Source: Escherichia coli O127:H6 str. E2348/69 (GTDB lineage: Bacteria > Pseudomonadota > Gammaproteobacteria > Enterobacterales > Enterobacteriaceae). From it: a stretch of 64,000 nt of DNA. Location: NCBI RefSeq assembly GCF_000026545.1, contig NC_011601.1, one strand, 5' to 3'. This document shows, piece by piece, positions 14,810 to 62,183 of the stretch. The translations under genes and the position numbers were made by a program. Numbering within the stretch: position 1 is the stretch's first letter; the number at the start of each line of letters is the position of its first letter. Below the pieces are notes generated by a model. That model saw only the letters and a list, made by a program, of their open reading frames with translations. It was not told the DNA's origin and searched no databases.

Positions 14810-15175
14810 ATGATGTCCACCACGTTATTTAAAGATTTCACCTTCGAAGCCGCTCACCGCTTGCCGCATGTCCCACAAGGGCATAAATGTGGTCGCCTGC
14901 ACGGGCATTCCTTTATGGTGCGACTGGAAATTACCGGGGAAGTCGATCCGCATACGGGCTGGATTATCGATTTCGCTGAACTGAAAGCGGCGTTTAAACC
15001 AACTTATGAGCGCCTCGATCACCATTATCTCAATGATATTCCAGGTCTGGAAAACCCAACCAGCGAAGTTTTAGCAAAATGGATTTGGGATCAGGTTAAA
15101 CCCGTTGTGCCGCTGTTAAGTGCGGTGATGGTAAAAGAAACCTGCACCGCAGGTTGTATCTATCGCGGCGAATGA
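14810..15175 (+). CDS. queD: 6-carboxy-5,6,7,8-tetrahydropterin synthase
   Basis: ORF 14726..15175; conserved start [18 protein letters not shown] gives 121 aa; QueD/PTPS motifs. Confidence 0.88.
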
Positions 15176-15252
15176 TAAGAGTGTGTCGGCGGTCAATTTC
15201 CCTTAAGTAACGCTATGTTAGGGTGTTGTGTTCTGGATATCTGGGGCATGAC

Positions 15253-16524
15253 ATGGAAGACGACTGCGACATTATTATTATCGGTGCCGGAATTGCTGGC
15301 ACCGCTTGCGCGTTACGCTGCGCGCGAGCGGGTTTATCCGTTTTGTTACTGGAACGAGCGGAGATTCCCGGCAGCAAAAATCTTTCCGGCGGGCGGCTAT
15401 ACACTCATGCGCTCGCGGAACTCCTCCCGCAATTTCACCTGACCGCGCCTCTTGAACGACGCATCACTCACGAAAGTCTTTCTCTGTTAACGCAAGATGG
15501 CGCAACGACGTTTTCCAGCTTACAGCCCGGCGGTGAATCCTGGAGTGTATTACGTGCACGATTCGATCCGTGGCTGGTTGCCGAAGCCGAAAAAGAAGGT
15601 GTCGAATGCATCCCCGGTGCGACGGTAGATGCACTGTATGAAGAAAACGGCAGGGTGTGTGGTGTCATTTGTGGTGACGATATTCTTCGCGCCCGTTATG
15701 TGGTGCTGGCAGAAGGTGCCAACAGCGTCCTGGCGGAACGCCACGGGTTAGTGACTCGTCCTGCTGGCGAAGCGATGGCATTGGGGATCAAAGAAGCGCT
15801 GGCGCTGGAACCATCCGCTATTGAAGAACGTTTTCATCTGGAGAATAACGAAGGCGCAGCGTTGCTGTTCAGCGGCGGAATCTGTGATGACTTACCCGGC
15901 GGCGCATTTCTTTATACTAATCAACAAACGCTCTCGTTAGGGATTGTTTGCCCGCTCTCCTCCCTTACGCAAAGTCGTGTTCCGGCAAGCGAGCTGCTGG
16001 CTCGCTTTAAAACGCATCCGGCAGTGCGCCCGCTTATCAAAAACACGGAATCACTGGAGTATGGTGCGCATCTGGTGCCAGAAGGTGGCCTGCGCAGTAT
16101 GCCGGTGCAATACGCCGGTAACGGCTGGCTGCTGGTGGGCGATGCGTTGCGCAGTTGCGTCAATACCGGAATTTCCGTGCGCGGTATGGATATGGCGCTA
16201 ACTGGCGCGCAGGCGGCGGCACAAACGCTGATAAGCGCCTGCCAGCACCGCGAGCCGCAAAATCTGTTTCCGCTTTATCATCACAACGTAGAGCGCAGCC
16301 TGCTGTGGGATGTTCTACAGCGTTATCAGCATGTTCCGGCGCTTTTGCAACGCCCTGGCTGGTATCGGGTGTGGCCTGGGTTAATGCAGGATATTTCCCG
16401 TGATTTATGGGATCAGGGGAATACACCTGTTCCACCGCTGCGCCAGTTGCTCTGGCGTCATTTACGTCGTCACGGCCTGTGGCATCTGACGGGCGATGTT
16501 ATCAGGAGTCTGCGATGTCTGTAG
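15253..16524 (+). CDS. ygcN: FAD-dependent oxidoreductase, FixC/ETF-quinone-oxidoreductase-like
   Basis: ORF 15223..16524; dinucleotide-binding motif DIIIIGAGIAGTACA near N-terminus; start placed at MEDDCD (423 aa). Confidence 0.85.
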   Translation: MEDDCDIIIIGAGIAGTACALRCARAGLSVLLLERAEIPGSKNLSGGRLYTHALAELLPQFHLTAPLERRITHESLSLLTQDGATTFSSLQPGGESWSVLRARFDPWLVAEAEKEGVECIPGATVDALYEENGRVCGVICGDDILRARYVVLAEGANSVLAERHGLVTRPAGEAMALGIKEALALEPSAIEERFHLENNEGAALLFSGGICDDLPGGAFLYTNQQTLSLGIVCPLSSLTQSRVPASELLARFKTHPAVRPLIKNTESLEYGAHLVPEGGLRSMPVQYAGNGWLLVGDALRSCVNTGISVRGMDMALTGAQAAAQTLISACQHREPQNLFPLYHHNVERSLLWDVLQRYQHVPALLQRPGWYRVWPGLMQDISRDLWDQGNTPVPPLRQLLWRHLRRHGLWHLTGDVIRSLRCL

Positions 16525-16775
16525 CCCGTAATCTCTGGCGCGCTGCCGATGCGCCGCACATTGTTCCGGCTGACTCCGTTGAGCGCCAGACGGCACAACG
16601 GTTGATTAACGCCTGTCCAGCAGGTCTTTTTTCGCTCACACCTGAAGGTGGCTTACGTGTTGATTATCACGGCTGCCTGGAGTGTGGCGCCTGCCGTTTG
16701 CTGTGCGACGAATCAACACTACAACAGTGGCGCTATCCGCCTTCCGGATTCGGCATCACCTACCGCTTTGGATAA
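16515..16775 (+). CDS. ygcO: ferredoxin-like protein (FixX-like)
   Basis: 86-aa product from internal Met MSVARN; Cys-rich (CLECGACRLLC); start overlaps ygcN stop. Confidence 0.8.
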   Translation: MSVARNLWRAADAPHIVPADSVERQTAQRLINACPAGLFSLTPEGGLRVDYHGCLECGACRLLCDESTLQQWRYPPSGFGITYRFG

Positions 16776-16791
16776 ATAATAAGGATAATTT

Positions 16792-17367
16792 ATGCCCCTC
16801 TTACACCTGCTCCGCCAGAATCCGGTGATTGCTGCCGTTAAAGATAATGCCAGCCTGCAACTGGCAATCGACTCTGAATGCCAGTTTATTTCCGTGTTGT
16901 ACGGCAATATCTGCACCATTAGTAATATCGTTAAAAAGATTAAGAACGCCGGGAAATATGCTTTTATTCATGTTGATTTGCTGGAAGGCGCGTCAAATAA
17001 AGAAGTGGTGATTCAGTTTTTGAAACTGGTGACCGAGGCGGACGGAATTATCAGTACCAAAGCCTCAATGCTGAAAGCAGCAAGAGCGGAAGGTTTTTTC
17101 TGTATTCATCGACTGTTTATTGTTGATTCGATTTCGTTTCACAACATTGATAAGCAAGTTGCGCAATCGAATCCGGATTGTATTGAGATCCTGCCAGGCT
17201 GCATGCCTAAAGTGCTGGGCTGGGTGACGGACAAAATCCGCCAACCGCTGATTGCTGGCGGGCTGGTGTGCGATGAAGAAGATGCGCGTAATGCGATTAA
17301 CGCGGGTGTTGTGGCGCTTTCCACCACGAATACTGGGGTCTGGACGTTAGCGAAAAAATTGCTTTGA
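16792..17367 (+). CDS. ygcP: GlpP-family glycerol-3-phosphate-responsive antiterminator homolog
   Basis: 191-aa ORF, length and sequence consistent with the GlpP family; last gene of ygcNOP. Confidence 0.75.
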   Translation: MPLLHLLRQNPVIAAVKDNASLQLAIDSECQFISVLYGNICTISNIVKKIKNAGKYAFIHVDLLEGASNKEVVIQFLKLVTEADGIISTKASMLKAARAEGFFCIHRLFIVDSISFHNIDKQVAQSNPDCIEILPGCMPKVLGWVTDKIRQPLIAGGLVCDEEDARNAINAGVVALSTTNTGVWTLAKKLL

Positions 17368-17402
17368 CGGGATAATCGTAACAAGTTGAATTTGGTGTGA
17401 TT

Positions 17403-17473
17403 TGTAGGCTGCACGCCACATCCGACATCCAGCGCCTGATGCGACGCTTGACGCGTCTTATCAGGCCTACAAG
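17403..17473. repeat. REP/BIME element (two palindromic units)
   Basis: TGTAGGCTGCACGCCACATCCGACA ... GCCTGATGCGACGCTTGACGCGTCTTATCAGGCCTACA at the convergent ygcP/ygcQ junction. Confidence 0.7.
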
Positions 17474-17514
17474 TCCCCAGCCCAGAACCATCGGCAGGAT
17501 CATCCGGCAGCACG

Positions 17515-18375
17515 TTATTGGCAATCTGCGTGAATGTTTGTCACCAGTGCCTCCAGCACCACTTTCCAGTCATCAATCACGCCAACATCTGCCTGTGAAA
17601 ATACCGCTGCACTGGCGTCATGATTAATCGCCACCACAAACTTGCTATTGCGTACGCCCGCCATTAACGCTGCTGCGCCGGAAGCGCCAACAACAATACA
17701 CACCTCAGGTGCCAGCAGATGTCCGGAAATACCAATCACTTTTTCGGCATCAACGCCACCGTTCATCACTCGTGCCCGACTGTAGCCCACTTCGGCTCCC
17801 ATCTTTTCTGCCAGCATAGCGATTTCCTGGTTATCTGCCTCTCCGCCCTGCCCCACCACCAGCACCCGTCTGGCCTCAGCTAATGGGTCACGGGTAACAT
17901 TTTTCAGGTTTTCTATGCTGATAAGCCAGTCTGGAAGCGCGCCGGGGACAATGTTCAGTTGCTGCATCCCAGAGGGCAACGTGGCGTTTTTATCTGCTCC
18001 CGCCTGACGTGCCAGCGAAAGGCATAGCGGGCGTTTTTCTGTTTGCAGCGTCGCCGTTAGCGCATTTCCCCAGTGGGATTTGCGCACGCTTACGGTTGGA
18101 ATATCTAACGAAGTCACCTGGCAGATGCTTGCACCATGTAAACGCCAGGCCAGCCGGGTCGACAGTTCATCGCCAAACGTTCCCGGCGGAAAGAGAACAA
18201 CGTCCGCAGGCGTTCGTTGCCACTGTTCCACCAGCACATCCAGCACCTGTTCCGCAACCATCGGCTGTGGTTCTATTTGCCAATGTGCCAGGGTACAACC
18301 GCTGAAATCCTGCGCCGCCAGCCAGCTCGCTATTGCGGCATGTTCCTGATTTATTGTCACAATTGCGATATTCAT
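17515..18375 (-). CDS. ygcQ: electron-transfer flavoprotein alpha-subunit-like protein (FixB-like)
   Basis: ORF 17515..18408; ETF-alpha-like sequence; start placed at MNIAIVTINQ (286 aa). Confidence 0.82.
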   Translation of the reverse strand: MNIAIVTINQEHAAIASWLAAQDFSGCTLAHWQIEPQPMVAEQVLDVLVEQWQRTPADVVLFPPGTFGDELSTRLAWRLHGASICQVTSLDIPTVSVRKSHWGNALTATLQTEKRPLCLSLARQAGADKNATLPSGMQQLNIVPGALPDWLISIENLKNVTRDPLAEARRVLVVGQGGEADNQEIAMLAEKMGAEVGYSRARVMNGGVDAEKVIGISGHLLAPEVCIVVGASGAAALMAGVRNSKFVVAINHDASAAVFSQADVGVIDDWKVVLEALVTNIHADCQ

Positions 18376-19151
18376 GGCTGCATCCTTTGGCGTAAATAGT
18401 CCTGCCATAGCTTTTGCGCTTTTTCTGCTACCGTTTGCCCATCAATCAGCGCCGCTCTGCGTCGTTGCTCTGGCCTTGCCAGTTGCAGGCACTGTATCGC
18501 TGGCGCTTCCGCGGCAACAGTTTCGCGGGTAATCTCCGCTTTCCCCGCCGCCATTCGCTGGCGCATTCCCGGTACTGGCAAGGCCACTTCACCACACTGA
18601 CGCACGGCAATCACCGCAGGCAAGCGAACCCGGCAACAGCGTACCCCATGTTCAGTACGCTGTTCGAGGGTGATAAACGGTGCGTCGAGAGTAAAGCGCT
18701 CCACCTGGGTGAAGCAGGGCCAGACCAGCATTTCCGCCAGCAAAAATGGCGTTTGCCCATTCTGCCCTTCGCTGCTTTGGCAGCCAGTAATTATCAGATC
18801 CAGCGGATTCTGGTACTGCCATTCGGCAATATGGCGAGCGACAAATTCCGGCGCAAAGCACAGATCTGCCGCCGTCTCCAGCAATACAGCGTCCTCAAAC
18901 CCAAGAGCCATGAGATAGCGCAGCCAGTGCAACGCCCGTTCATCCCCCATGCTCAACGCGGTTAAAGACATCGGCGTACCGTTTTTTCTCTGCGCCAACA
19001 GCAGCGCGGCGGCAGCCTGTTCATCGGCACCGAGTAAACTTCGCAGAAGCGAAACATCCGGTCCGATATTACCCTGAGCCGCCGCCTGCCACTCTTTTTC
19101 CGCCAGCATTCCGGCATCCGGTTCGGCTTTAAACGCTAACAGAATGTTCAT
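18372..19151 (-). CDS. ygcR: electron-transfer flavoprotein beta-subunit-like protein (FixA-like)
   Basis: ORF 18372..19157; ETF-beta-like; 4-bp overlap with ygcQ start suggests translational coupling. Confidence 0.82.
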   Translation of the reverse strand: MNILLAFKAEPDAGMLAEKEWQAAAQGNIGPDVSLLRSLLGADEQAAAALLLAQRKNGTPMSLTALSMGDERALHWLRYLMALGFEDAVLLETAADLCFAPEFVARHIAEWQYQNPLDLIITGCQSSEGQNGQTPFLLAEMLVWPCFTQVERFTLDAPFITLEQRTEHGVRCCRVRLPAVIAVRQCGEVALPVPGMRQRMAAGKAEITRETVAAEAPAIQCLQLARPEQRRRAALIDGQTVAEKAQKLWQDYLRQRMQP

Positions 19152-20466
19152 TCGCACCTCCTACATTTCCCGCCGCCACCAGCGGGAGTGCTTTGGTTTC
19201 TGGTGCCCATAGCCAGGTCACAACAAAACCAACCAACAACACTGCCGCCAGGAGCAATAAGGTGACTTGCATTCCCCACTGCGCCAGCACCCACGGCAGC
19301 AGGCCCGTACTTACTGCCGCGCCCAACCGACTCATGGCGGTGGCAAAACCGACGCCCAGCGAGCGAATGTCAGTAGGAAAACTTTCCGCAGGCAAAATGC
19401 CCACCAGATTACTGACTGCCGAAATGGTGGTGCTGAAGAGAACAAAAAGCAGCAGCGTTAATGAACTGCCGGAAGGCAAACAGGCCATCACTACCAGCGT
19501 TGCCGCCAGCAGCAAAAAACTTCCCAGTAAAAATCTGCGATGTGCCAGCAGGTGCGTCAGAACTAATCCCAGCAGCGCGCCCACAATTAACAACGCATTA
19601 AGCATCAGGCTGGCAGTCAGCGCATCTTCCAGACCAATAGTTTGGGCGATGGTCGGCAGCCAGGTATAAATCACAAACCATGGGATTACGAGGCAGACAA
19701 AGAAGACGCTGTTAAACGCCGTGCGCCGCCAGTAGCGCGAAGAGAACAAGGTTTTGATGTGTTTATGGGTCGCCGTTGCCACTTCATCGCCCAGTAAAAC
19801 ATGCGGGCCAAAATAGCGATGAACGATAGCGTGAGCTTCTGCAAAACGCCCCTGGCGCAGTAGCCAGCGTGGCGATTCCGGCGTGCCCCAACGTAGCAGC
19901 GTAATCAGCAAAGCTGGTAACGCCGCTGATGCCAGCAGCCAGCGCCAGGCCTCCGGGCTTTCGGAAATAAAGTGATGTCCGGCAATACTTGCCAGCACAT
20001 AGCCTACGGTCCACACCACACTGAATGCGCCCAGCAAAATACCGCGATGGCGGCGCGGGGAAAATTCAGCCAGCAAGGTGTGACCGACTGAGTAATCGCC
20101 TCCCAGACCAATGCCGATCAAAATGCGCAATCCAATAAGATGCTCTGGCGTGGTGGCAAAAAATTGCAAGAACGAAGCGAGCGTAATCAGCATAAAACTG
20201 AAGGTGAAGATTTTTTGCCGCCCGATATGGTCGGAGATCCACCCCAAAACCAGGCTGCCAAGAAACAAACCAAGTAACGCCGAGCCGCCGATCATTCCCG
20301 CCATAAACGGCGTCAGTTGCATGGCGGGCGTAAGCTGAATAATGGCGTAACCAATGACGCCGAGAACATAACCGTCGGTCAGGTGTGCGCCGAAAGTGAG
20401 CGCAGCAATGCGGCAGTGAAAACGGTTAAGTGGTAAATCATCCATTCGCACCGGTGAAGTGTTCAT
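19129..20466 (-). CDS. ygcS: MFS transporter
   Basis: ORF 19129..20556; multi-TM hydrophobic sequence; start placed at MNTSPV (445 aa). Confidence 0.8.
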   Translation of the reverse strand: MNTSPVRMDDLPLNRFHCRIAALTFGAHLTDGYVLGVIGYAIIQLTPAMQLTPFMAGMIGGSALLGLFLGSLVLGWISDHIGRQKIFTFSFMLITLASFLQFFATTPEHLIGLRILIGIGLGGDYSVGHTLLAEFSPRRHRGILLGAFSVVWTVGYVLASIAGHHFISESPEAWRWLLASAALPALLITLLRWGTPESPRWLLRQGRFAEAHAIVHRYFGPHVLLGDEVATATHKHIKTLFSSRYWRRTAFNSVFFVCLVIPWFVIYTWLPTIAQTIGLEDALTASLMLNALLIVGALLGLVLTHLLAHRRFLLGSFLLLAATLVVMACLPSGSSLTLLLFVLFSTTISAVSNLVGILPAESFPTDIRSLGVGFATAMSRLGAAVSTGLLPWVLAQWGMQVTLLLLAAVLLVGFVVTWLWAPETKALPLVAAGNVGGANEHSVSV

Positions 20467-20559
20467 CTTTACCCCTTCATTGTCCGGTAATAAGAACGGC
20501 TTCTCGCCTGAGAAGCCGAAAAGGCAACGCCCTGTCATCGAGGAACGCTGCCTCACACA

Positions 20560-22014
20560 TTATTTTTCAATCGGATAGATAGTACCCGTATTCATAATGC
20601 CGTTAGGATCGAACTGTTTTTTCAGACCTTCCAGCAACGTCCACGCGCTGCCGTGTTCCAGTTTGCTCCAGTGAACGCGATGTTTACCGATACCGTGGTG
20701 GTGCACCATCGAACCGCCGAGACGAATGGTTTCTTCGCAGATGATTTTGTTGAGCGGATTGTGGTACTTGTCGATTTCCTCTTCCGGCTTACAGTCAACG
20801 ACGTTGTAGTCGTAGACGAAGTACATGTTGGTGCCGTTCTGATAGCTATGAGAGGAGTGACCGCCCAGCATGGTGATGTCGTCGGCGTGCGGGAACTCGG
20901 TACGAATACGGTTAATAACGCTTTCGTAGATTTCGTGAATGCAGCTCCAGCAGCCGGACACTTCAGTGGTAAAGCCCATGTTGCCGGTTTTGAGGATCTG
21001 CACACGTTCGGCAGCCACTTTATCCGGTCCCCAGTTCAGGTTGTTAAACCAGGTTTCGATCAGCTTGCTGTCCACGCGCTGGCACTGCGGGTAGCACGCC
21101 ACGATTTCAGCAATCCCTTCACCCGTCGCCTTCGCAATGCGAGGGTTACCTTCAGCCATAAAGATCAGCACGCATTTGCCGTCGGCAAAATGGGTGAAGT
21201 GTTGGGTGCCATCTTCAGCATCATACAAACGAGCAATCGACGGACGATACCCTTCCACCATGATTTCACGCAGGATGTTGAAGCCGGTTTTCATGTCTTC
21301 CAGCACATAGCCATAGAAGAGATTGTTTTCCGGCGTAAATTTGAAGATTTTCACTGTGACTTCAGTGATATAGCACAGTGCACCTTCGTTGCCGATGATG
21401 ATATGACGAATGTCCGGGCCAGCCGCGCGACGTGGCACGTTTTTAATGCGTGTGACGGTGCCATCTGCCAGCACCGCTTCCAGACCAACGACCATATCCT
21501 CGATTGCGCCGTAGAGTGTGGAAAACTGCCCGATACTGCGGGTCGCCACCAGGCCGCCCATCTGCGCCAGCGGCTTTGACTGCGGAGAATGCCCCGTGGT
21601 GTAACCTTTTTCACGCAGCGCGTTTTCCAGCACCTCCAGCGGAACGCCACATTGCGCCGTGGCCTGCATATTCTCAATATCAATATTAATGATTTGATTC
21701 ATGGCGGAGCCGTCGAGCACCACCGAGTTTTCCACAACGGTTTCCAGCCCACCTTCGGTGGCGGAAGCACCGGTACGTGGCACACCGTTAATTTTGTGCG
21801 CATTCATAAAATTCAGCACACGGGATACTTGTTCTGTGGAACCGAGTTTTACGACCGCTGCCGGAATTGGCAAAGTATAAATGCCATGAATATCCGGAAA
21901 TTTACGAAAACGGTCAATACTGTTCTTCTTTAATACTGTTTCATCGGTAATTACGCGATCTGCACCAACAATTTCCTTTAGCTGGTCGACAATCGCTACG
22001 CGAGATAAAGACAT
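20560..22014 (-). CDS. ygcU: FAD-linked oxidase (alkyl-DHAP-synthase / GlcD-like)
   Basis: 484-aa ORF with FAD-binding PCMH-type features. Confidence 0.82.
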   Translation of the reverse strand: MSLSRVAIVDQLKEIVGADRVITDETVLKKNSIDRFRKFPDIHGIYTLPIPAAVVKLGSTEQVSRVLNFMNAHKINGVPRTGASATEGGLETVVENSVVLDGSAMNQIINIDIENMQATAQCGVPLEVLENALREKGYTTGHSPQSKPLAQMGGLVATRSIGQFSTLYGAIEDMVVGLEAVLADGTVTRIKNVPRRAAGPDIRHIIIGNEGALCYITEVTVKIFKFTPENNLFYGYVLEDMKTGFNILREIMVEGYRPSIARLYDAEDGTQHFTHFADGKCVLIFMAEGNPRIAKATGEGIAEIVACYPQCQRVDSKLIETWFNNLNWGPDKVAAERVQILKTGNMGFTTEVSGCWSCIHEIYESVINRIRTEFPHADDITMLGGHSSHSYQNGTNMYFVYDYNVVDCKPEEEIDKYHNPLNKIICEETIRLGGSMVHHHGIGKHRVHWSKLEHGSAWTLLEGLKKQFDPNGIMNTGTIYPIEK

Positions 22015-22083
22015 AGTAATTCCTTCCTGATAATAAAAATGGAATAGTTATTAATAAGAGAAAACAGAAACCACCGTTATGAA

Positions 22084-22869
22084 TTAGCGCACTAAATAAC
22101 CGCCATCAACCACTAATAAATGTCCGTTGACATAATTCGATGCCGGACTTGCGAGGAATACGGCTGCACCCATTAAATCCTGAGTATCACCCCAACGGTT
22201 TGCCGGAATATGATCAAGAACACGCTGGTTAGTTTCTGGATTACTACGGGTCGCCAGCGTAATATCGGTTGCATAATAACCAGGAGCAATACCATTCACC
22301 TGAATATTATATTGGCCTAATTCATCGCAATAGGCTTTGGTGAATCCGGCAAGAGCATGTTTAGTGGCAGAATAAGCAGGTGACCATTGACCACCTAAGT
22401 AAGAGAACAATGAACAGATATTAATGATTTTACCGCTTTTCTGCGGGATCATAATTTTTGCCGCTTCGTAGCTTAACTCGAATGCGGCGGTCAGGTTCAC
22501 GTCAATCATCGGGTCCCAGTCGGCACGACCAAAGTCCAGCACCTTATTCAGCTTACAAATACCGGCATTGTTAACCAGAATATCTACGGTACCGAAGCGC
22601 TCACAGCAGGCAGCGATAATCTTCTGCGGCGCGCCTTCTGCGGTGATATCCACCTGCATAAAATCAACTTCGACACCCTGTTTTTCAATCATTTCCTTTG
22701 TTTCGCCGTTATCTTTGACGAAACTAGGAATAAAGACATTTGCGCCAGCTTTGGCCAACGCCATGGCAAATGCCTGGCCTAAACCGCTATTCCCGCCAGT
22801 AACAATTGCTGTTTTACCTTTCAGGGAGAAAAAATCCATTGAGAACGCATTGAGAGATTCGATTGACAT
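22084..22869 (-). CDS. ygcW: short-chain dehydrogenase/reductase (KduD / 2-deoxy-D-gluconate 3-dehydrogenase-like)
   Basis: ORF 22084..22944; Rossmann motif TGGNSGLG and catalytic YSATK; start placed at MSIESL (261 aa) because the upstream in-frame extension overlaps a leader hairpin and A/T run. Confidence 0.82.
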   Translation of the reverse strand: MSIESLNAFSMDFFSLKGKTAIVTGGNSGLGQAFAMALAKAGANVFIPSFVKDNGETKEMIEKQGVEVDFMQVDITAEGAPQKIIAACCERFGTVDILVNNAGICKLNKVLDFGRADWDPMIDVNLTAAFELSYEAAKIMIPQKSGKIINICSLFSYLGGQWSPAYSATKHALAGFTKAYCDELGQYNIQVNGIAPGYYATDITLATRSNPETNQRVLDHIPANRWGDTQDLMGAAVFLASPASNYVNGHLLVVDGGYLVR

Positions 22870-22893
22870 AGTTAGCTCCAATTTCCGTAAGGC

Positions 22894-22940
22894 AAAAAAA
22901 AAGAAAGGTAACTTCCCCCGCGAGAGGGAAGTTACCTTTC
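22894..22940 (-). terminator. intrinsic-terminator-like hairpin + U9 tract in the ygcW leader (candidate antitermination target)
   Basis: Perfect 15-bp stem GAAAGGTAACTTCCC (22903..22917) / GGGAAGTTACCTTTC (22926..22940), 8-nt loop; on the minus-strand transcript it is followed by nine U (A-run 22894..22902), ending 24 nt upstream of the ygcW ATG. Confidence 0.6.
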
Positions 22941-22990
22941 TCATTATCTCTGGTAACTGGAGATAATTTTTAGCATAAGGACATAACTGC

Positions 22991-23012
22991 TAATGTGATC
23001 GTAATCACAGTG
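22991..23012. promoter_or_regulatory. CRP binding site (consensus TGTGA-N6-TCACA) in ygcW/yqcE divergent promoter region
   Basis: TGTGATCGTAATCACA at 22994..23009 matches both CRP half-sites perfectly; a further TGTGA half-site follows immediately. Confidence 0.55.
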
Positions 23013-23115
23013 TGATGTTCGTATTGTCAAATAATTTAAAAAAGCAGAAGCGTGATTACTCTCACACAACACCTCTGCTTTCCATGTTATTTCTTATTGC
23101 AATTACTAGAGACCT

Positions 23116-23162
23116 GAGAAAAGTAATCCACCTGAAAGGGCGGCTTACTTTTCTCTTTTTTT
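23116..23162 (+). terminator. hairpin + U7 tract in the yqcE leader (terminator/attenuator-like)
   Basis: Perfect 11-bp stem GAGAAAAGTAA (23116..23126) / TTACTTTTCTC (23145..23155), 18-nt loop, then TTTTTTT (23156..23162), ending 24 nt upstream of the yqcE ATG. Confidence 0.45.
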
Positions 23163-23186
23163 GTCTATTACAAATGGGAATACGAT

Positions 23187-24464
23187 ATGCAACACAACTC
23201 ATATCGCCGTTGGATAACCCTCGCGATAATTAGTTTTAGCGGCGGCGTTAGTTTCGACCTGGCTTATTTACGTTATATTTATCAAATTCCCATGGCAAAA
23301 TTTATGGGATTCAGCAATACCGAGATAGGTTTAATAATGAGTACCTTTGGTATTGCGGCCATTATTTTCTATGCCCCTAGCGGCGTTATTGCCGATAAAT
23401 TTTCACATCGCAAAATGATTACTTCCGCGATGATCATTACCGGATTACTGGGTCTGTTAATGGCAACATATCCACCGCTGTGGGTAATGCTCTGTATTCA
23501 GGTCGCCTTTGCGATAACGACGATTTTAATGCTGTGGTCGGTGTCGATTAAAGCCGCATCGTTGCTGGGCGATCATAGCGAGCAAGGGAAAATTATGGGC
23601 TGGATGGAAGGGCTGCGCGGCGTCGGTGTAATGTCGCTGGCGGTGTTTACCATGTGGGTCTTTTCTCGCTTTGCACCGGATGACAGCGCCAGCCTGAAAA
23701 CGGTCATTATTATCTATAGTGTGGTTTACATTCTGCTGGGCATTTTGTGTTGGTTTTTTGTTAGCGATAACAACAATCTGCGCAGTGCCAATAACGAAGA
23801 AAAACAGTCATTCCAGCTTAGCGACATCCTGGCCGTTTTGCGCATCAGCACCACCTGGTATTGCAGCATGGTGATTTTTGGTGTCTTCACCATCTACGCC
23901 ATTCTGAGTTACTCCACCAACTATCTGACCGAAATGTACGGCATGTCGTTGGTGGCGGCGAGCTACATGGGGATTGTGATCAACAAAATCTTCCGCGCGC
24001 TGTGCGGCCCACTTGGCGGCATTATCACCACCTACAGTAAAGTGAAATCCCCTACCCGCGTGGTCCAAATCCTTTCCATCATCGGTTTGCTGGCGTTGAC
24101 AGCCCTGCTCGTCACGAACTCTAACCCGCAATCGGTCGCGATGGGGATTGGCCTGATTTTATTACTGGGATTCACCTGTTACGCCTCACGCGGGCTGTAC
24201 TGGGCCTGCCCTGGCGAAGCGAGAACACCGTCTTACATTATGGGCACCACGGTAGGTATTTGTTCGGTGATTGGATTTCTGCCGGATGTCTTCGTTTACC
24301 CGATTATCGGCTACTGGCAAGACACCCTGCCCGCTGCAGAAGCCTACCGCAACATGTGGCTAATGGGCATGGCGGCGCTTGGCATGGTGATCATCTTTAC
24401 CTTTTTGCTGTTCCAAAAAATTCGTACTGCTGATAGCGCCCCCGCAATGGCTAGCAGCAAGTAA
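23187..24464 (+). CDS. yqcE: MFS transporter
   Basis: 425-aa ORF, 12-TM-type hydrophobic profile. Confidence 0.82.
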   Translation: MQHNSYRRWITLAIISFSGGVSFDLAYLRYIYQIPMAKFMGFSNTEIGLIMSTFGIAAIIFYAPSGVIADKFSHRKMITSAMIITGLLGLLMATYPPLWVMLCIQVAFAITTILMLWSVSIKAASLLGDHSEQGKIMGWMEGLRGVGVMSLAVFTMWVFSRFAPDDSASLKTVIIIYSVVYILLGILCWFFVSDNNNLRSANNEEKQSFQLSDILAVLRISTTWYCSMVIFGVFTIYAILSYSTNYLTEMYGMSLVAASYMGIVINKIFRALCGPLGGIITTYSKVKSPTRVVQILSIIGLLALTALLVTNSNPQSVAMGIGLILLLGFTCYASRGLYWACPGEARTPSYIMGTTVGICSVIGFLPDVFVYPIIGYWQDTLPAAEAYRNMWLMGMAALGMVIIFTFLLFQKIRTADSAPAMASSK

Positions 24465-26133: not shown

Positions 26134-27054
26134 ATGAGCGCAAGAGTATGGGTACTCGGTGATGCGGTTGTTGATTTATTACCCGAAAGCCAGGGGAGAC
26201 TACTACAGTGTCCTGGCGGGGCGCCTGCTAATGTTGCAGTCGGTATCGCAAGGCTGGGGGGGAAAAGTGCCTTTATTGGCAAAGTTGGCGATGATCCTTT
26301 CGGTCGCTTTATGTATCAGACACTGAGTACAGAAAATGTTGATACACGTTATATGTCTCTTGATCCTCAACAACGCACCTCAATTGTGGCTGTAGGACTT
26401 GATGAGCAAGGAGAAAGAAACTTTACCTTTATGGTACGCCCAAGTGCCGATCTTTTTTTACAACCTGATGACCTTCCTACATTTGGGCCGGGTGAATGGC
26501 TCCATCTTTGTTCCATTGCGCTCAGTGCAGAACCTTCCCGAAGTACCGCATTTCTGGCTATGGAGAAAATACGTCAGGCTGGCGGAAACATCAGTTTTGA
26601 TCCCAATATCCGCAGCGATCTCTGGCAGAGTGAAGCGCTATTAAGAAAATACCTTGATCGCGCGCTTTCGCTGGCGAATATCGCTAAATTGTCCGAAGAA
26701 GAGTTGCTATTCATCAGTGGCGAAAGCCAGGTTCAGCAAGGCGCATATTCATTAGTACAACGTTATTCGTTGACTTTATTGCTTATCACACAAGGAAAAA
26801 ATGGCGTACTTGTGTATTTTCAGGGGCAGTTTATCCACTATCCCGCCAAACCTGTTTCTGTCGTCGATACGACCGGGGCAGGAGATGCTTTTGTCGCTGG
26901 ATTACTTGCAGGTCTGGCTGATTCTGGAATACCAACAAATACCAGACAGCTTGAACGAATCATTGCACAAGCTCAGATTTGTGGTGCTCTGGCGACCACG
27001 GCTAAAGGCGCGATGACCGCCTTACCCCGACAACACGATCTCCCTTCACAATAG
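26134..27054 (+). CDS. scrK: fructokinase (ROK/PfkB ribokinase-family)
   Basis: 306-aa ORF with GGAPANVA and C-terminal DTTGAGDAF motifs; first gene of a scr-type cluster. Confidence 0.85.
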   Translation: MSARVWVLGDAVVDLLPESQGRLLQCPGGAPANVAVGIARLGGKSAFIGKVGDDPFGRFMYQTLSTENVDTRYMSLDPQQRTSIVAVGLDEQGERNFTFMVRPSADLFLQPDDLPTFGPGEWLHLCSIALSAEPSRSTAFLAMEKIRQAGGNISFDPNIRSDLWQSEALLRKYLDRALSLANIAKLSEEELLFISGESQVQQGAYSLVQRYSLTLLLITQGKNGVLVYFQGQFIHYPAKPVSVVDTTGAGDAFVAGLLAGLADSGIPTNTRQLERIIAQAQICGALATTAKGAMTALPRQHDLPSQ

Positions 27055-27105
27055 TGATCCTGCTGTTGTATCTGTAACCCGATTTGTCGTGCCTGTCACA
27101 TTTAC

Positions 27106-27177
27106 TAAATCGGTTTAGCGAAAATAATTGCTCTGGCTAAAAAGTCAGCTTTATTATCAACACCTAAACCGGTTTAG
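27106..27177. promoter_or_regulatory. two putative ScrR operators in scrY promoter region
   Basis: CTAAATCGGTTTAG (27106..27119, near-palindrome) and CTAAACCGGTTTAG (27164..27177, perfect 14-bp palindrome), 45-115 bp upstream of scrY. Confidence 0.55.
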
Positions 27178-27197
27178 CATTTTAGCAATTTTTATAA

Positions 27198-28739
<1,542 letters not shown>

Positions 28740-28747
28740 TACCAGAC

Positions 28748-28770
28748 AGCCTCACGGATGTGAGGCTTTT
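28748..28770 (+). terminator. weak hairpin/partial terminator between scrY and scrA
   Basis: AGCCTCAC-GGAT-GTGAGGCT followed by only TTT; may attenuate rather than terminate. Confidence 0.3.
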
Positions 28771-28799
28771 ACTGAAATAACAATGAATTAGAGGGTTAT

Positions 28800-30170
28800 A
28801 TGGATTTCGATAAAATCGCCCAATCGTTGCTTCCTTTATTAGGTGGTAAGGAGAACATCGCCAGTGCAGCACATTGCGCCACTCGCCTACGGCTGGTACT
28901 GGTTGACGACACACTTGCCGATCAACATGCCATTGGCCAGATTGATGGAGTGAAAGGTTGTTTTCGTAATTCAGGGCAAATGCAAATCATCTTTGGCACC
29001 GGCGTGGTTAATAAAGTCTATGCTGCCTTTATTCAGGTTGCAGGTATTAGCGAATCCAGTAAAGCAGATACCGCTCGACTCGCCGCTCAAAAACTCAATC
29101 CTTTTCAGCGAATAGCACGGCTACTTTCTAATATTTTTGTCCCCATCATTCCAGCCATTGTTGCTTCTGGTTTATTAATGGGGCTCCTGGGAATGGTGAA
29201 AACATATGGCTGGGTGAATGCCGATAATGCGATTTATATCCTGCTGGATATGTGCAGTTCAGCCGCATTTATTATTCTCCCCATCCTTATTGGCTTTACT
29301 GCTGCTCGTGAATTTGGTGGAAATCCTTATCTTGGCGCGACATTAGGAGGGATTCTGACTCACCCGGCACTCACAAATGCCTGGGGCGTTGCTGCGGGAT
29401 TTCAGACAATGAACTTCTTCGGTTTTGAAATCGCCATGATTGGCTATCAGGGAACGGTTTTCCCCGTGCTTCTGGCAGTATGGTTTATGAGCATAGTGGA
29501 AAAACAGTTACGCAGGTTTATCCCTGATGCTCTGGATCTCATTCTGACGCCATTTCTGACTGTCGTCATTTCTGGCTTTATCGCTCTTTTGATTATTGGT
29601 CCGGCAGGACGAGCGTTAGGTGACGGTATCTCTTTCGTTCTCAGCACGCTGATTGCACACGCAGGCTGGTTAGCAGGGTTGTTATTCGGCGGGCTATATT
29701 CAGCGATTGTTATTACGGGTATTCATCATAGCTTCCACGCAATTGAAGCAGGACTTTTAGGTAACCCTGCAATCGGTGTTAATTTCCTGCTGCCTATTTG
29801 GGCAATGGCAAACGTTGCGCAAGGAGGTGCATGTCTGGCGGTATGGTTTAAAACCAAAGATACAAAAATTAAAGCAATCACCCTACCCTCGGCCTTTTCC
29901 GCAATGTTAGGGATTACTGAAGCCGCTATTTTTGGTATCAACCTTCGTTTTGTTAAACCTTTTATTGCGGCCTTAATTGGTGGCGCTGCCGGCGGTGCCT
30001 GGGTTGTCTCTGTTCACGTTTATATGACTGCCGTTGGTCTGACCGCAATACCCGGCATGGCAATCGTTCAGCCAACATCGTTGGTTAATTATATTATTGG
30101 AATGGTGATTGCTTTCGCTGTCGCTTTTAGCCTCTCTTTATTACTCAAATACAAAACGGACGAGGAGTAA
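28800..30170 (+). CDS. scrA: PTS sucrose-specific EIIBC component
   Basis: 456-aa ORF; N-terminal EIIB Cys motif (ASAAHCATRLR) followed by multi-TM EIIC domain. Confidence 0.88.
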   Translation: MDFDKIAQSLLPLLGGKENIASAAHCATRLRLVLVDDTLADQHAIGQIDGVKGCFRNSGQMQIIFGTGVVNKVYAAFIQVAGISESSKADTARLAAQKLNPFQRIARLLSNIFVPIIPAIVASGLLMGLLGMVKTYGWVNADNAIYILLDMCSSAAFIILPILIGFTAAREFGGNPYLGATLGGILTHPALTNAWGVAAGFQTMNFFGFEIAMIGYQGTVFPVLLAVWFMSIVEKQLRRFIPDALDLILTPFLTVVISGFIALLIIGPAGRALGDGISFVLSTLIAHAGWLAGLLFGGLYSAIVITGIHHSFHAIEAGLLGNPAIGVNFLLPIWAMANVAQGGACLAVWFKTKDTKIKAITLPSAFSAMLGITEAAIFGINLRFVKPFIAALIGGAAGGAWVVSVHVYMTAVGLTAIPGMAIVQPTSLVNYIIGMVIAFAVAFSLSLLLKYKTDEE

Positions 30171-31579
30171 TGTCGATGCCTTCACAAATGCCCGCGATTT
30201 TACAGGCAGTGATGAAAGGTCAGTCCAAAGCACTGGCAGATGCCCACTATCCTTGTTGGCATCTCGCTCCAGTCACCGGACTAATGAACGATCCAAATGG
30301 CTTTTGTTGGTCTGGAGGCCGCTATCATCTGTTTTATCAATGGAATCCACTGGCTTGTGATCATAAGTACAAATGTTGGGGGCACTGGAGTTCGACGGAT
30401 TTATTGCACTGGCAGCATGAACCATTAGCGCTAATGCCCGATAAAGAGTACGACCGTAATGGTTGTTACTCAGGAAGCGCGGTTAATAATCAGGGCGTTC
30501 TCACACTTTGCTATACCGGTAATGTTAAGTTTGATGATGGCAGCAGAACGGCATGGCAATGCCTGGCCACCGAAAATAACCAGGGCGGGTTTGATAAACT
30601 AGGCCCTGTCATACCGTTACCTGATGGTTACACCGGACATGTTCGTGATCCAAAAGTCTGGAAGCACAACAGCCAATGGTACATGGTGCTTGGCGCGCAA
30701 GATAAAGAGAAACGGGGGAAAGTGCTGCTGTATTCCTCTGTCGATCTCTATACCTGGTCTTTTCATGGAGAAATTGCTGGTAACGGTCTGAATGAAATAG
30801 ATAACGCAGGATACATGTGGGAATGTCCTGATCTTTTCGCCCTTGATGGTGAATACATTCTCCTCTGTTGCCCCCAGGGAATGGTGCGCGAACATGAGCG
30901 CTATCTGAATACTTATCCCTGCGCCTGGCTACATGGACAGTTTGATTACGAGACAGGCAAATTTACGCATGGCGCTTTCTCAGAGCTGGATGCGGGATTT
31001 GAATTCTATGCACCACAGACGATGGAAGCCCCGGACGGGCGACGATTGCTGGTCGGCTGGATGGGGGTTCCTGATGGCGAAGAGATGTTGCAGCCAACCA
31101 GAAAGCATCATTGGCAGCATCAAATGACCTGTTTTCGCGAACTCTCATTCCAGAAGGGAAAATTGTTTCAGATGCCAATCAGGGAACTCGCGCAACTGCG
31201 TGAAGCTGAACACTTCTGGCAAGGAAAAGCGGATCATGCGCCGCATGTCGAAATTGAACGCCTGGAAATGGACATCATTCCGTCGGGTGAGCTGTATCTG
31301 AATTTTGGCAATGCGCTGGCACTGCATCTTAATGACGATGGTATTCAACTACAGAGGAGAAGCCTTGCAGGGCAAGAGAAACTAACTCGTTACTGGCGAG
31401 GAAGCGTAACGTCACTGAAGATTCTCTGTGACAGTTCCAGCGTAGAGATATTCATCAATAATGGTGAAGGTGTAATGAGTAATCGTTATTTTCCCCATCA
31501 TCCAGCTTCGCTGATATTACAGGGTGAGTCTGACGTCACGTTACGCTACTGGTCGCTACGCGCCTGCATGGTAGAATGA
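30170..31579 (+). CDS. scrB: sucrose-6-phosphate hydrolase (GH32 invertase)
   Basis: 469-aa ORF with GH32 signature MNDPNG and downstream W(M)ECPD; start codon choice near 30170 uncertain. Confidence 0.88.
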
Positions 31580-31604
31580 GGGTTTTGAATTACGGATCCT
31601 CGTC

Positions 31605-32612
31605 GTGAGAAAAACCAAACGCGTTACTATTAAAGACATTGCTGAACTGGCGGGAGTGTCGAAAGCAACCGCCAGTCTGGTTCTCAATGGTCGTGGCAAA
31701 GAGTTACGTGTTGCGCAGGAAACGCGTGAGCGTGTGCTGAGTATTGCCCAACAGCAGCATTATCAGCCCAGCATTCATGCCCGCTCATTACGGGACAACC
31801 GCAGTCATACCATTGGTCTCGTCGTTCCTGAAATCACTAACTACGGATTTGCAGTATTTTCCCATGAACTGGAAACATTGTGTCGGGAAGCGGGCGTCCA
31901 GCTCCTCATATCCTGTACTGATGAAAATCCTTCACAGGAAACAATGGTGGTGAACAATATGATTGCCCGCCAGGTTGATGGGTTAATCGTCGCATCCAGT
32001 ATGCTGCATGATAATGACTATCAAAAACTTAGCGAGCAATTACCTGTTGTGTTGTTCGATCGCCACATGAACGGCAGTACATTGCCATTGGTCATTACTG
32101 ACTCTGTTTCTCCCACCGCCGCTCTGGTGGCAGATATTGCACGGAGTCACCCGGATGAATTCTATTTTCTGGGCGGACAACCCCGTTTGTCACCGACTCG
32201 CGATCGACTGGAAGGATTTACACAAGGCTTGCAGCAAGCCGGAGTAACGCTACAACCTGAATGGATTATTCACGGTAATTATCATCCGAGCTCAGGCTAT
32301 GAAATGTTTGCCGCGCTATGCGCTCGTTTAGGACGTCCCCCTAAAGCCTTATTCACTGCCGCTTGTGGATTACTGGAAGGCGTTCTGCGCTATATGAGCC
32401 AATATAATTTACTCGACAGTAAAATACACCTGGCGAGTTTTGATGATCATTACTTGTATGATTCACTTTCGGTAAGAATCGACACAATACAACAGGATAA
32501 TCGCCAACTTGCTTTTCACTGCTTTGAACTTATTTCGCAACTGATTGAAGGTGAAACGCCATCCCCATTACAGCGTTATCTTCCTGCCAGTCTACAAAAA
32601 CGCTACCGATAA
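31605..32612 (+). CDS. scrR: LacI-family transcriptional repressor of the sucrose regulon
   Basis: 335-aa ORF (GTG start) with N-terminal [26 protein letters not shown] and periplasmic-binding-protein-like effector domain. Confidence 0.85.
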
Positions 32613-61637: not shown

Positions 61638-62183
61638 TAGCTACCTCTCTCTGATTCAAAACAGGGCAATAATGTTGTTCCTTTCACACTATTGAATTAG
61701 CCGTTTAATTACCCACCATCTTCTTCCTGATTAACCAGAAAGAAATTCACAAGCTTATATTTTGTGACCTGGTTCAACTAATCACAGTAAATAACTGCAA
61801 GTTCTCTTTTTATAACCCTATTAAAAATGACCGCTCTTAAAAATATTTATCAAAACGGTCATTTTTCCATTCCCCCTCGCCAGAAATGCCCGTTTTCGGC
61901 ACAAACAATTAATACGGTCATCGGGTTTGTGTTTTTTATGATTTATTTTCTGAAACGGGCATGAAATTTCGATTATTAAAGTGATGGTAGTCACATAAAG
62001 TCACCTCCCAACTAATAAGTGTGACCGCCGTCATATTACAGAGCGTTTTTTATTTGAAAATGAATCCATGAGTTCATTTCTGACAGGCAAATATTCACTG
62101 ATATGAAGCCCGAACTCGCTGGTTTTGCACTTTTGAAAACATAACCGATTACGTGCTTAAGCTTCTGAACCTAAGAGGATGCT

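Follow-up and report, generated by a model that had tools for sequence, protein, structure and literature searches.

The operons ygcW-ygcU-ygcS-ygcR-ygcQ (leftward) and yqcE-ygcE (rightward) diverge from a short spacer that carries a perfect consensus CRP site. This raises the question of how one such site might serve two promoters, and of why the cluster can stay silent despite a site of nanomolar affinity. It was addressed in a window of 64,000 nucleotides from Escherichia coli O127:H6 str. E2348/69 (NC_011601.1), i.e. the whole stretch of DNA that was analysed. The original prediction for this locus described a perfect TGTGA-N6-TCACA at 22991-23012, and the site is present as TGTGATCGTAATCACA, that range adding three flanking bases on each side. 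The divergent control region of about 320 bp given for it corresponds to a ygcW/yqcE spacer of 317 bp (22870-23186). A pattern search found no other perfect TGTGA-N6-TCACA in the window, and shuffled versions of the window contained 0.05 on average, with at least one in 5 of 100 shuffles. The further suggestion of a carbon-catabolic role for the cluster is a reasonable one.

The CRP site itself has a record in the literature. PhyloScan ranked ygcW/yqcE second among the predicted E. coli CRP targets in 2007 (PMC1794230), a CRP ChIP-seq study of ETEC H10407 from 2015 entered TGTGATTACGATCACA for ygcW/yqcE (PMC4287617), and a Footprint-seq preprint from 2026 reports an in vitro Kd of about 1.7 nM, where the designation 'novel' means only that the site is absent from RegulonDB (PMC12871828). 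At the level of expression, a transcriptome study from 2021 contains the entry 'yqcE-ygcE Crp activation', drawn from transcriptome inference (PMC8085971), and no corresponding published entry was found for ygcW. The checks proposed along with the original prediction have largely been carried out in this published work by others, and the site, already predicted, ChIP-mapped and footprinted, adds nothing new on its own. CRP control of the cluster is borne out by the published binding and by the activation of yqcE-ygcE, whereas the idea of one central site for both operons gives way to two sites. Published data also concern RNA polymerase and H-NS. An RpoD SELEX peak lies in the spacer, which the same table marks as H-NS-associated (PMC3946193), so that H-NS silencing may form a further layer of control. 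In vitro run-off arrays gave a forward-strand signal in the spacer, ahead of yqcE, and both kinds of data indicate promoter activity there.

What is new is the duplicated architecture of CRP site, promoter and leader together with a candidate YgcP system, neither of which was found described in the literature searched. The spacer is an inverted duplication of an entire module consisting of a CRP site, 18 nt, a TGnTA element, a leader and an RBS. Its left half, read on the minus strand, matches its right half, read on the plus strand, through the CRP site, TGnTA and the leader up to the ATG. A second CRP site, missed by the original prediction, lines up with the perfect one in this alignment, and in E2348/69 both CRP centres (23001.5 and 23058.5) lie 26.5 bp from the T of their own TGnTA. 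The best explanation, to which a probability of roughly 60 % is assigned, is that two divergent modules, each with a class II CRP promoter and a leader, are combined with antitermination by YgcP. The features on which this explanation is built are collected in Table 1.

Table 1. Features of the ygcW/yqcE control region and the candidate partner gene, in window coordinates
Feature	Position	Strand	Description
ygcP	16792-17367	+	antiterminator gene of the GlpP family (PF04309); distance to the spacer about 5.5 kb; candidate partner acting in trans on the two leaders
ygcW	ATG at 22869	-	leftward gene
ygcW intrinsic terminator	22894-22942	-	19-bp stem 22942-22901; nine U's 22902-22894; folding z = -6.0
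ygcW leader P1	22930-22958	-	AGUUACC / loop AGAGAUAAUGAGAAA / GGUAACU; putative antiterminator, candidate YgcP site
Predicted ygcW promoter	22967-22975	-	extended -10-like TG-C-TAAAAA; predicted TSS ~22960-22958
CRP site 1	22994-23009		TGTGATCGTAATCACA; centre 23001.5; perfect consensus; assigned to the leftward ygcW promoter at a predicted ~-41.5 (class II position)
CRP site 2	23051-23066		CGTGATTACTCTCACA; centre 23058.5; 1 mismatch; assigned to the rightward yqcE promoter at a predicted ~-41.5
Predicted yqcE promoter	23085-23093	+	extended -10-like TG-T-TATTTC; predicted TSS ~23100-23101
yqcE leader P1	23102-23127	+	AUUACU / loop AGAGACCUGAGAAA / AGUAAU
yqcE intrinsic terminator	23116-23162	+	stem 23116-23155; seven U's 23156-23162; folding z = -4.5
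yqcE	ATG at 23187	+	rightward gene

Each leader comprises about 65-80 nt, with the motif starting at or beside the predicted +1 and the terminator placed just upstream of the RBS. The first element, P1, is a simple hairpin of 6-7 bp with an open loop of 14-16 nt and no complex fold. The loop follows the pattern AGAGA-N3-4-GAGAAA and contains two GAGA repeats that are conserved across phyla. The second element is an intrinsic terminator, whose stem base in the ygcW leader takes in the first two U's of the U run. Because the second GAGA repeat and the 3' strand of P1 also serve as the 5' arm of the terminator, with alignment columns 41-47 common to both helices, the two structures are mutually exclusive. 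Folded alone, P1 reaches -6.7 kcal/mol in the ygcW leader and -1.4 kcal/mol in the yqcE leader, the latter being no better than shuffled sequence. Such weakness is expected of a structure that needs a protein to outcompete the terminator.

Both helices are supported in an alignment of 106 non-redundant leaders, in which 93.8 % of the terminator cells and 91.2 % of the P1 cells are paired, compared to 54-61 % (terminator) and 14-54 % (P1) in controls with the partner slid by 1-3 columns. Column 41, which has its partners in columns 21 and 75, covaries with its P1 partner (UA 72, CG 25) as well as with its terminator partner (AU 80, GC 25), and column 46 tracks its P1 partner (GC 67, AU 33), although this covariation reflects few independent events and mostly differences between paralogue copies or clades. 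Between the two P1 hairpins of E. coli, compensatory changes from G-C to A-U and from C-G to U-A distinguish yqcE from ygcW.

A covariance model of the leader, applied to 1.2 Mb of loci, returned only the two copies per locus, and E. coli genomes contain a median of 2 places with the motif. A third copy, upstream of ygcN/ygcP or upstream of ygcS in clusters of the Serratia/Pantoea type, was found neither in the 1.2 Mb nor genome-wide in E. coli. The possibility that the hairpins are bidirectional terminators or repeat elements was rejected as well, as the T run is present on one strand only and each hairpin lies upstream of the gene it precedes; the matches of the covariance model on the opposite strand are weak echoes. 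No family of Rfam 15 came near its gathering score in this region of the window (noise, E >= 0.35), Rfam gave no match at the Vibrio, Clostridium or Priestia loci either, and the RefSeq annotation has no feature at the leader positions.

Published Term-seq data place 3' ends in both leaders. In the data of Adams et al. 2021 for K-12 grown in LB (supplementary file 3), the ygcW leader end at K-12 position 2900311 (-), corresponding to window position 22907, is covered by 40,640 reads with a Rho score of 0.50 ('No') and an intrinsic-terminator score of 15.8, and the yqcE leader end at 2900556 (+), window position 23152, by 1,557 reads with a Rho score of 0.61 ('No') and an intrinsic-terminator score of 11.4 (PMC7815308). 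These data mark the ygcW leader as an abundant 'orphan' 3'-end RNA of LB cultures (PMC7815308), its end having 26 times the reads of the yqcE leader end. According to these published ends, short Rho-independent leader transcripts accumulate in vivo. The ends fall within the 3' arm of either terminator stem, 5 nt (ygcW) and 4 nt (yqcE) before the U tract starts and about 10-13 nt ahead of the U-tract ends, and trimming of the 3' ends is the simplest idea for this offset. Termination within the leaders in LB would explain how the cluster can be silent despite its nanomolar CRP site.

A candidate for the protein that reads the leaders is encoded within the cluster. YgcP matches the Pfam family PF04309 (G3P_antiterm) over its full length with an E-value of 2.7e-62 and the sequence of the Listeria GlpP structure (PDB 3kts) with an E-value of 2e-27 and 99 bits. 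The 150 best-scoring YgcP cluster representatives all reach at least 112 bits and are closer to YgcP than Listeria GlpP is. NCBIfam has no model for YgcP, and the literature search returned nothing on ygcP function, YgcP binding, a ygcP mutant, or a leader or antitermination system of the ygc cluster. Almost all Enterobacterales loci of sufficient length to show it have a ygcP homologue within the cluster, including those with a rearranged gene order. The genes under regulation form a cluster of SDR, FGGY kinase, GlcD-like FAD oxidase and ETF genes and are not glp genes. Since this gene context is unlike that of glp, a phosphorylated ligand other than glycerol-3-phosphate (G3P) is plausible.

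The association of motif and gene set extends beyond the Enterobacterales. The closest YgcP relatives outside this order, with 55-63 % identity, were found in Clostridium sediminicola, Vibrio hannami and Thalassobacillus, next to genes for an SDR, an FGGY kinase, a GlcD-like FAD oxidase, ETF and a transporter. Directly upstream of such genes in these three, the covariance model trained on E. coli detected the leader motif with E-values from 5e-12 to 4.5e-9, and the motif is also located beside a YgcP homologue with 44 % identity (locus L066). The transporters in YgcP-type clusters vary, with BCCT or OpuA-type (betaine/choline-like) transporters beside or in place of the MFS transporter in loci from Clostridium, Vibrio and Bacilli (L062, L063, L064, L066), and these may offer a clue to the substrate. 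The cluster shows a mosaic pattern of conservation. When Escherichia is compared with Citrobacter, Klebsiella, Raoultella and relatives (L007-L015), YgcP, YgcW and YgcU share 92-97 % identity, and YgcQ, YgcR, YgcN and YgcO share only 57-78 % in the same comparison (window 15000-22900).

The GlpP systems of the Firmicutes provide the closest precedent. In Bacillus subtilis, GlpP together with glycerol-3-phosphate activates glpD, glpFK and glpTQ, and these targets are described as having a promoter followed by a GlpP site and a 5'-UTR intrinsic terminator (PMC9604022), a layout that the ygc modules share along with the protein family. No sequence-level definition of the B. subtilis GlpP site was found in the accessible papers. 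The canonical locus used for comparison was glpP-glpF-glpK-glpD of Priestia megaterium, reached via the 3kts sequence. Its glpD leader reads UGGU-UGGAGAAUCGGAGAG-ACCA, where the second repeat and ACCA open the terminator arm; the pairing partner of this arm is UGGUCUCUC, and seven U's come next. As in the ygc leaders, a short hairpin carries two (G)GAGA repeats about 8 nt apart in its loop and overlaps the terminator 5' arm, and the model trained on E. coli scored this leader with an E-value of 0.014. In the Priestia glpFK leader, GGAGAAUAGGAGA with its two repeats lies directly ahead of the terminator arm, and the hairpin did not fold in the same way. Two further leaders beside PF04309 genes with G3P-related neighbours read GCUA-GAGAGAUGAGAGUA-UAGC (L067) and GGUAC-AGAGACGAAGAGAA-GUAC (L065). 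The Listeria glpP locus (L069) has no adjacent glp genes and was therefore uninformative. Across lineages, the nascent 5' leader forms a hairpin with both repeats in the loop in seven of eight, and the helix sequences are wholly different from one lineage to another. On account of the two-repeat loop over a terminator that they share with Priestia glpD, L065 and L067, the E. coli leaders are assigned to the class of GlpP targets.

There are also differences from the GlpP systems. The repeats are AGAGA..GAGAAA in the ygc leaders and GGAGA..GGAGA in the glp leaders, the helix sequence differs too, and the ygc ligand need not be G3P. Catabolite control is layered on top in both cases, but the ygc modules belong to a Gram-negative host and would use class II CRP promoters instead of CcpA. 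The glp regulon of E. coli itself is under the control of the GlpR repressor.

Taken together with the CRP sites, these features lead to the following model of dual control. Each operon would have its own class II promoter, to which cAMP-CRP would recruit RNA polymerase, with site 1 activating the ygcW-ygcU-ygcS-ygcR-ygcQ side and site 2 activating yqcE-ygcE. By default, the stronger terminator would win, and transcription would stop about 25-35 nt ahead of the start codon. YgcP loaded with a pathway intermediate would bind and stabilise P1, block the terminator and allow read-through. By analogy with GlpK and GlpP, the ligand would most simply be a phosphorylated product of the YgcE kinase, which may not be G3P. 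Expression would then require cAMP-CRP and the specific inducer together. Binding of YgcP to the leaders and the nature of its ligand are inferred in this model, as are the TSSs, the allocation of one CRP site per promoter and activation of the class II type. That E. coli and most Enterobacterales carry a working antitermination system of the GlpP family, with YgcP acting on the two-GAGA-repeat hairpin of the ygcW and yqcE leaders, is considered somewhat probable. As part of this reading, the RNA motif would span Firmicutes and Gammaproteobacteria, absent from Rfam and always in the company of the same orphan catabolic cluster.

Alternatively, the leaders may function without YgcP, as metabolite-sensing riboswitches, as attenuators acting constitutively or as genes whose short, stable RNA products act in trans, with YgcP having its role elsewhere. 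The extreme conservation of the loop sequence across phyla and the abundance of the ygcW leader RNA in LB would be compatible with this, and the contact between YgcP and the leaders is itself a deduction. However, the element is a simple hairpin with an open loop and lacks a complex fold, no Rfam family matches the leaders, and a PF04309 gene adjoins the leader motif in every lineage examined. Moreover, the Priestia glpD leader has the same two-repeat loop, and GlpP dependence has been described for the glp leaders of B. subtilis (PMC9604022). A function of the leaders independent of YgcP is therefore regarded as unlikely.

The assignment of one CRP site to each promoter was examined in 59 yqcE loci from Enterobacterales genomes, nearly all of which have the divergent ygcW/yqcE pair and 57 of which provided informative spacers. 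All 57 spacers contain two CRP-like sites. The site on the ygcW side is located 131-144 bp from the ygcW ATG, with no mismatch in 27 loci, one in 21 and two in 9. On the yqcE side, most loci have the site about 128-148 bp from the ATG of yqcE, and a few with leader insertions have it farther away; it shows no mismatch in 14 loci and one in 43. Since the spacing between each site and its own gene is maintained and the module as a whole is duplicated, the perfect site is assigned to the ygcW promoter and site 2 to the yqcE promoter. Vibrio hannami likewise has one CRP site per promoter. The single shared site of the original prediction would thereby be replaced by two promoter-specific ones. Its description as centered in the spacer needs a similar adjustment, as the site does lie inside the spacer, but its centre is 26.5 bp to the left of the midpoint at 23028, and it is the pair of sites, with a midpoint of 23030, that is centred. 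The adjacent TGTGA half-site exists at 23011-23015, but just 3 of the 58 orthologous spacers have it, and even within Escherichia it is not universal. It was therefore rejected as half of a composite CRP site and is probably due to chance.

For the promoters, the position of the TGnTA element relative to the CRP site is informative. Of 114 modules, 113 have a TGnTA, whose distance from the CRP centre is 26.5 bp in 68 modules, 27.5 bp in 43 and 28.5 bp in 2. Assuming a TSS 7 nt past the hexamer of this predicted -10, CRP would be positioned at -41.5 or -42.5 in 111 of the 113 modules. The leader motif begins 8-9 nt past the hexamer in 101 modules. In the hexamers following TGn, T-12 and A-11 are kept and T-7 is not, and neither predicted promoter has a good -35. 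On the geometry of CRP site and TGnTA, class II activation by CRP is predicted at both promoters. The published supplements of Cappable-seq and SMRT-Cappable-seq contain no entry for the ygcW/yqcE locus, and no experimental TSS was found.

It could still be argued that the perfect site activates both divergent operons and that site 2 is incidental. Site 1 is the stronger of the two and is flanked by both operons, and it is the only one given in the published ChIP-seq and Footprint-seq tables, no published CRP binding having been found for site 2. Against this, site 2 is kept in 57 of 57 loci with at most one mismatch and is tied to the yqcE side, and in these loci the two sites are anywhere from 36 to 246 bp apart while the distances from site to gene are held. 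The two modules also align from the CRP site to the ATG, and the arrangement in Vibrio hannami is the same. In addition, site 1 would be located at about -98.5 relative to the predicted yqcE TSS, which is off the helical phase of functional class I CRP positions. A single site shared by both operons is consequently seen as distinctly improbable. It is very unlikely that site 1 is instead the class II site of another rightward promoter, with the -10 AATAAT at 23030-23035, a TSS near 23042 and site 2 within the transcribed region, because, although the distance from 23001.5 to 23042 also amounts to about -41 and the in vitro run-off signal is on the forward strand, the stretch between the sites is conserved in neither sequence nor length (36-246 bp), AATAAT is absent from the output of the consensus promoter scan, and the conserved TGnTA elements lie outside the pair of sites and not between them.

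The proposed arrangement, two modules with one CRP site each and YgcP antitermination, can be compared with other known systems. In the bgl operon of E. coli, a CRP-dependent promoter is followed by a leader terminator that is overridden by the cluster-encoded BglG, which acts at a RAT hairpin overlapping the terminator. The same combination of CRP-dependent promoter, leader terminator and cluster-encoded antiterminator is proposed for ygc. BglG belongs to the CAT-PRD proteins and responds to PTS phosphorylation, whereas YgcP belongs to PF04309 and presumably binds a small ligand; the RAT sequence is unrelated, and the ygc module is divergently duplicated. The fucA/fucP operons in the same window are likewise divergent catabolic operons with near-consensus CRP sites in their spacer, but ygcW/yqcE has a duplicated module with a separate class II-positioned site for either promoter, and its specific regulator seems to target RNA instead of DNA. 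The two CRP sites in the fucA/fucP control region, AGTGATGGTAGTCACA at 61980-61995 and TGTGACCGCCGTCATA at 62020-62035, have one mismatch each, and the region is presumably a known target of CRP regulation. In B. subtilis, HutP and TRAP read short purine-rich leader repeats of the NAG or GAG type and so decide between terminator and antiterminator, much as is proposed here for the ygc leaders. The protein folds and stoichiometries are different, and the resemblance is not meant to imply homology.

If the YgcP reading is correct, E. coli K-12 would have two catabolic systems of protein-RNA antitermination, BglG being the other one, and the recognition element of the whole PF04309 family would be defined. 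The occurrence of the motif across phyla suggests that two GAGA repeats in a hairpin loop are a general rule of recognition in the GlpP family. For YgcP, a y-gene product of K-12, a concrete candidate target can be named, and the leaders would provide an inducible reporter with which to look for the substrate of the ygc pathway, itself uncharacterised.

Some loci of the comparison deviate from the common arrangement. In Limnobaculum eriocheiris (L034:9871-10000), the spacer of 130 bp has one leader copy and no CRP-like site, and looks degenerate. In Klebsiella spallanzanii (L007:9854-10000) and Citrobacter youngae (L009:9854-10000), about 127 bp are inserted into the 5' UTR of yqcE beyond the leader terminator, and this insertion seems similar to an ERIC repeat. 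Two contigs have unexpected labels. The 'Planctomycetota MAG' contig (L060) shows 100 % identity over residues 1-46 of YqcE from E. coli, with leaders and CRP sites matching E. coli, and the 'Chryseobacterium sp.' contig (L051) carries an enterobacterial ygc cluster; both are probably due to contamination or mislabelling. Beyond ygcE, the window of E2348/69 contains a sucrose-utilisation cluster at about 26134-32600, between ygcE and queE, a position at which it is presumably absent from K-12. It comprises genes for a sugar kinase, a carbohydrate porin, a sucrose PTS IIBC component, a sucrose-6-phosphate hydrolase and a LacI-family regulator.
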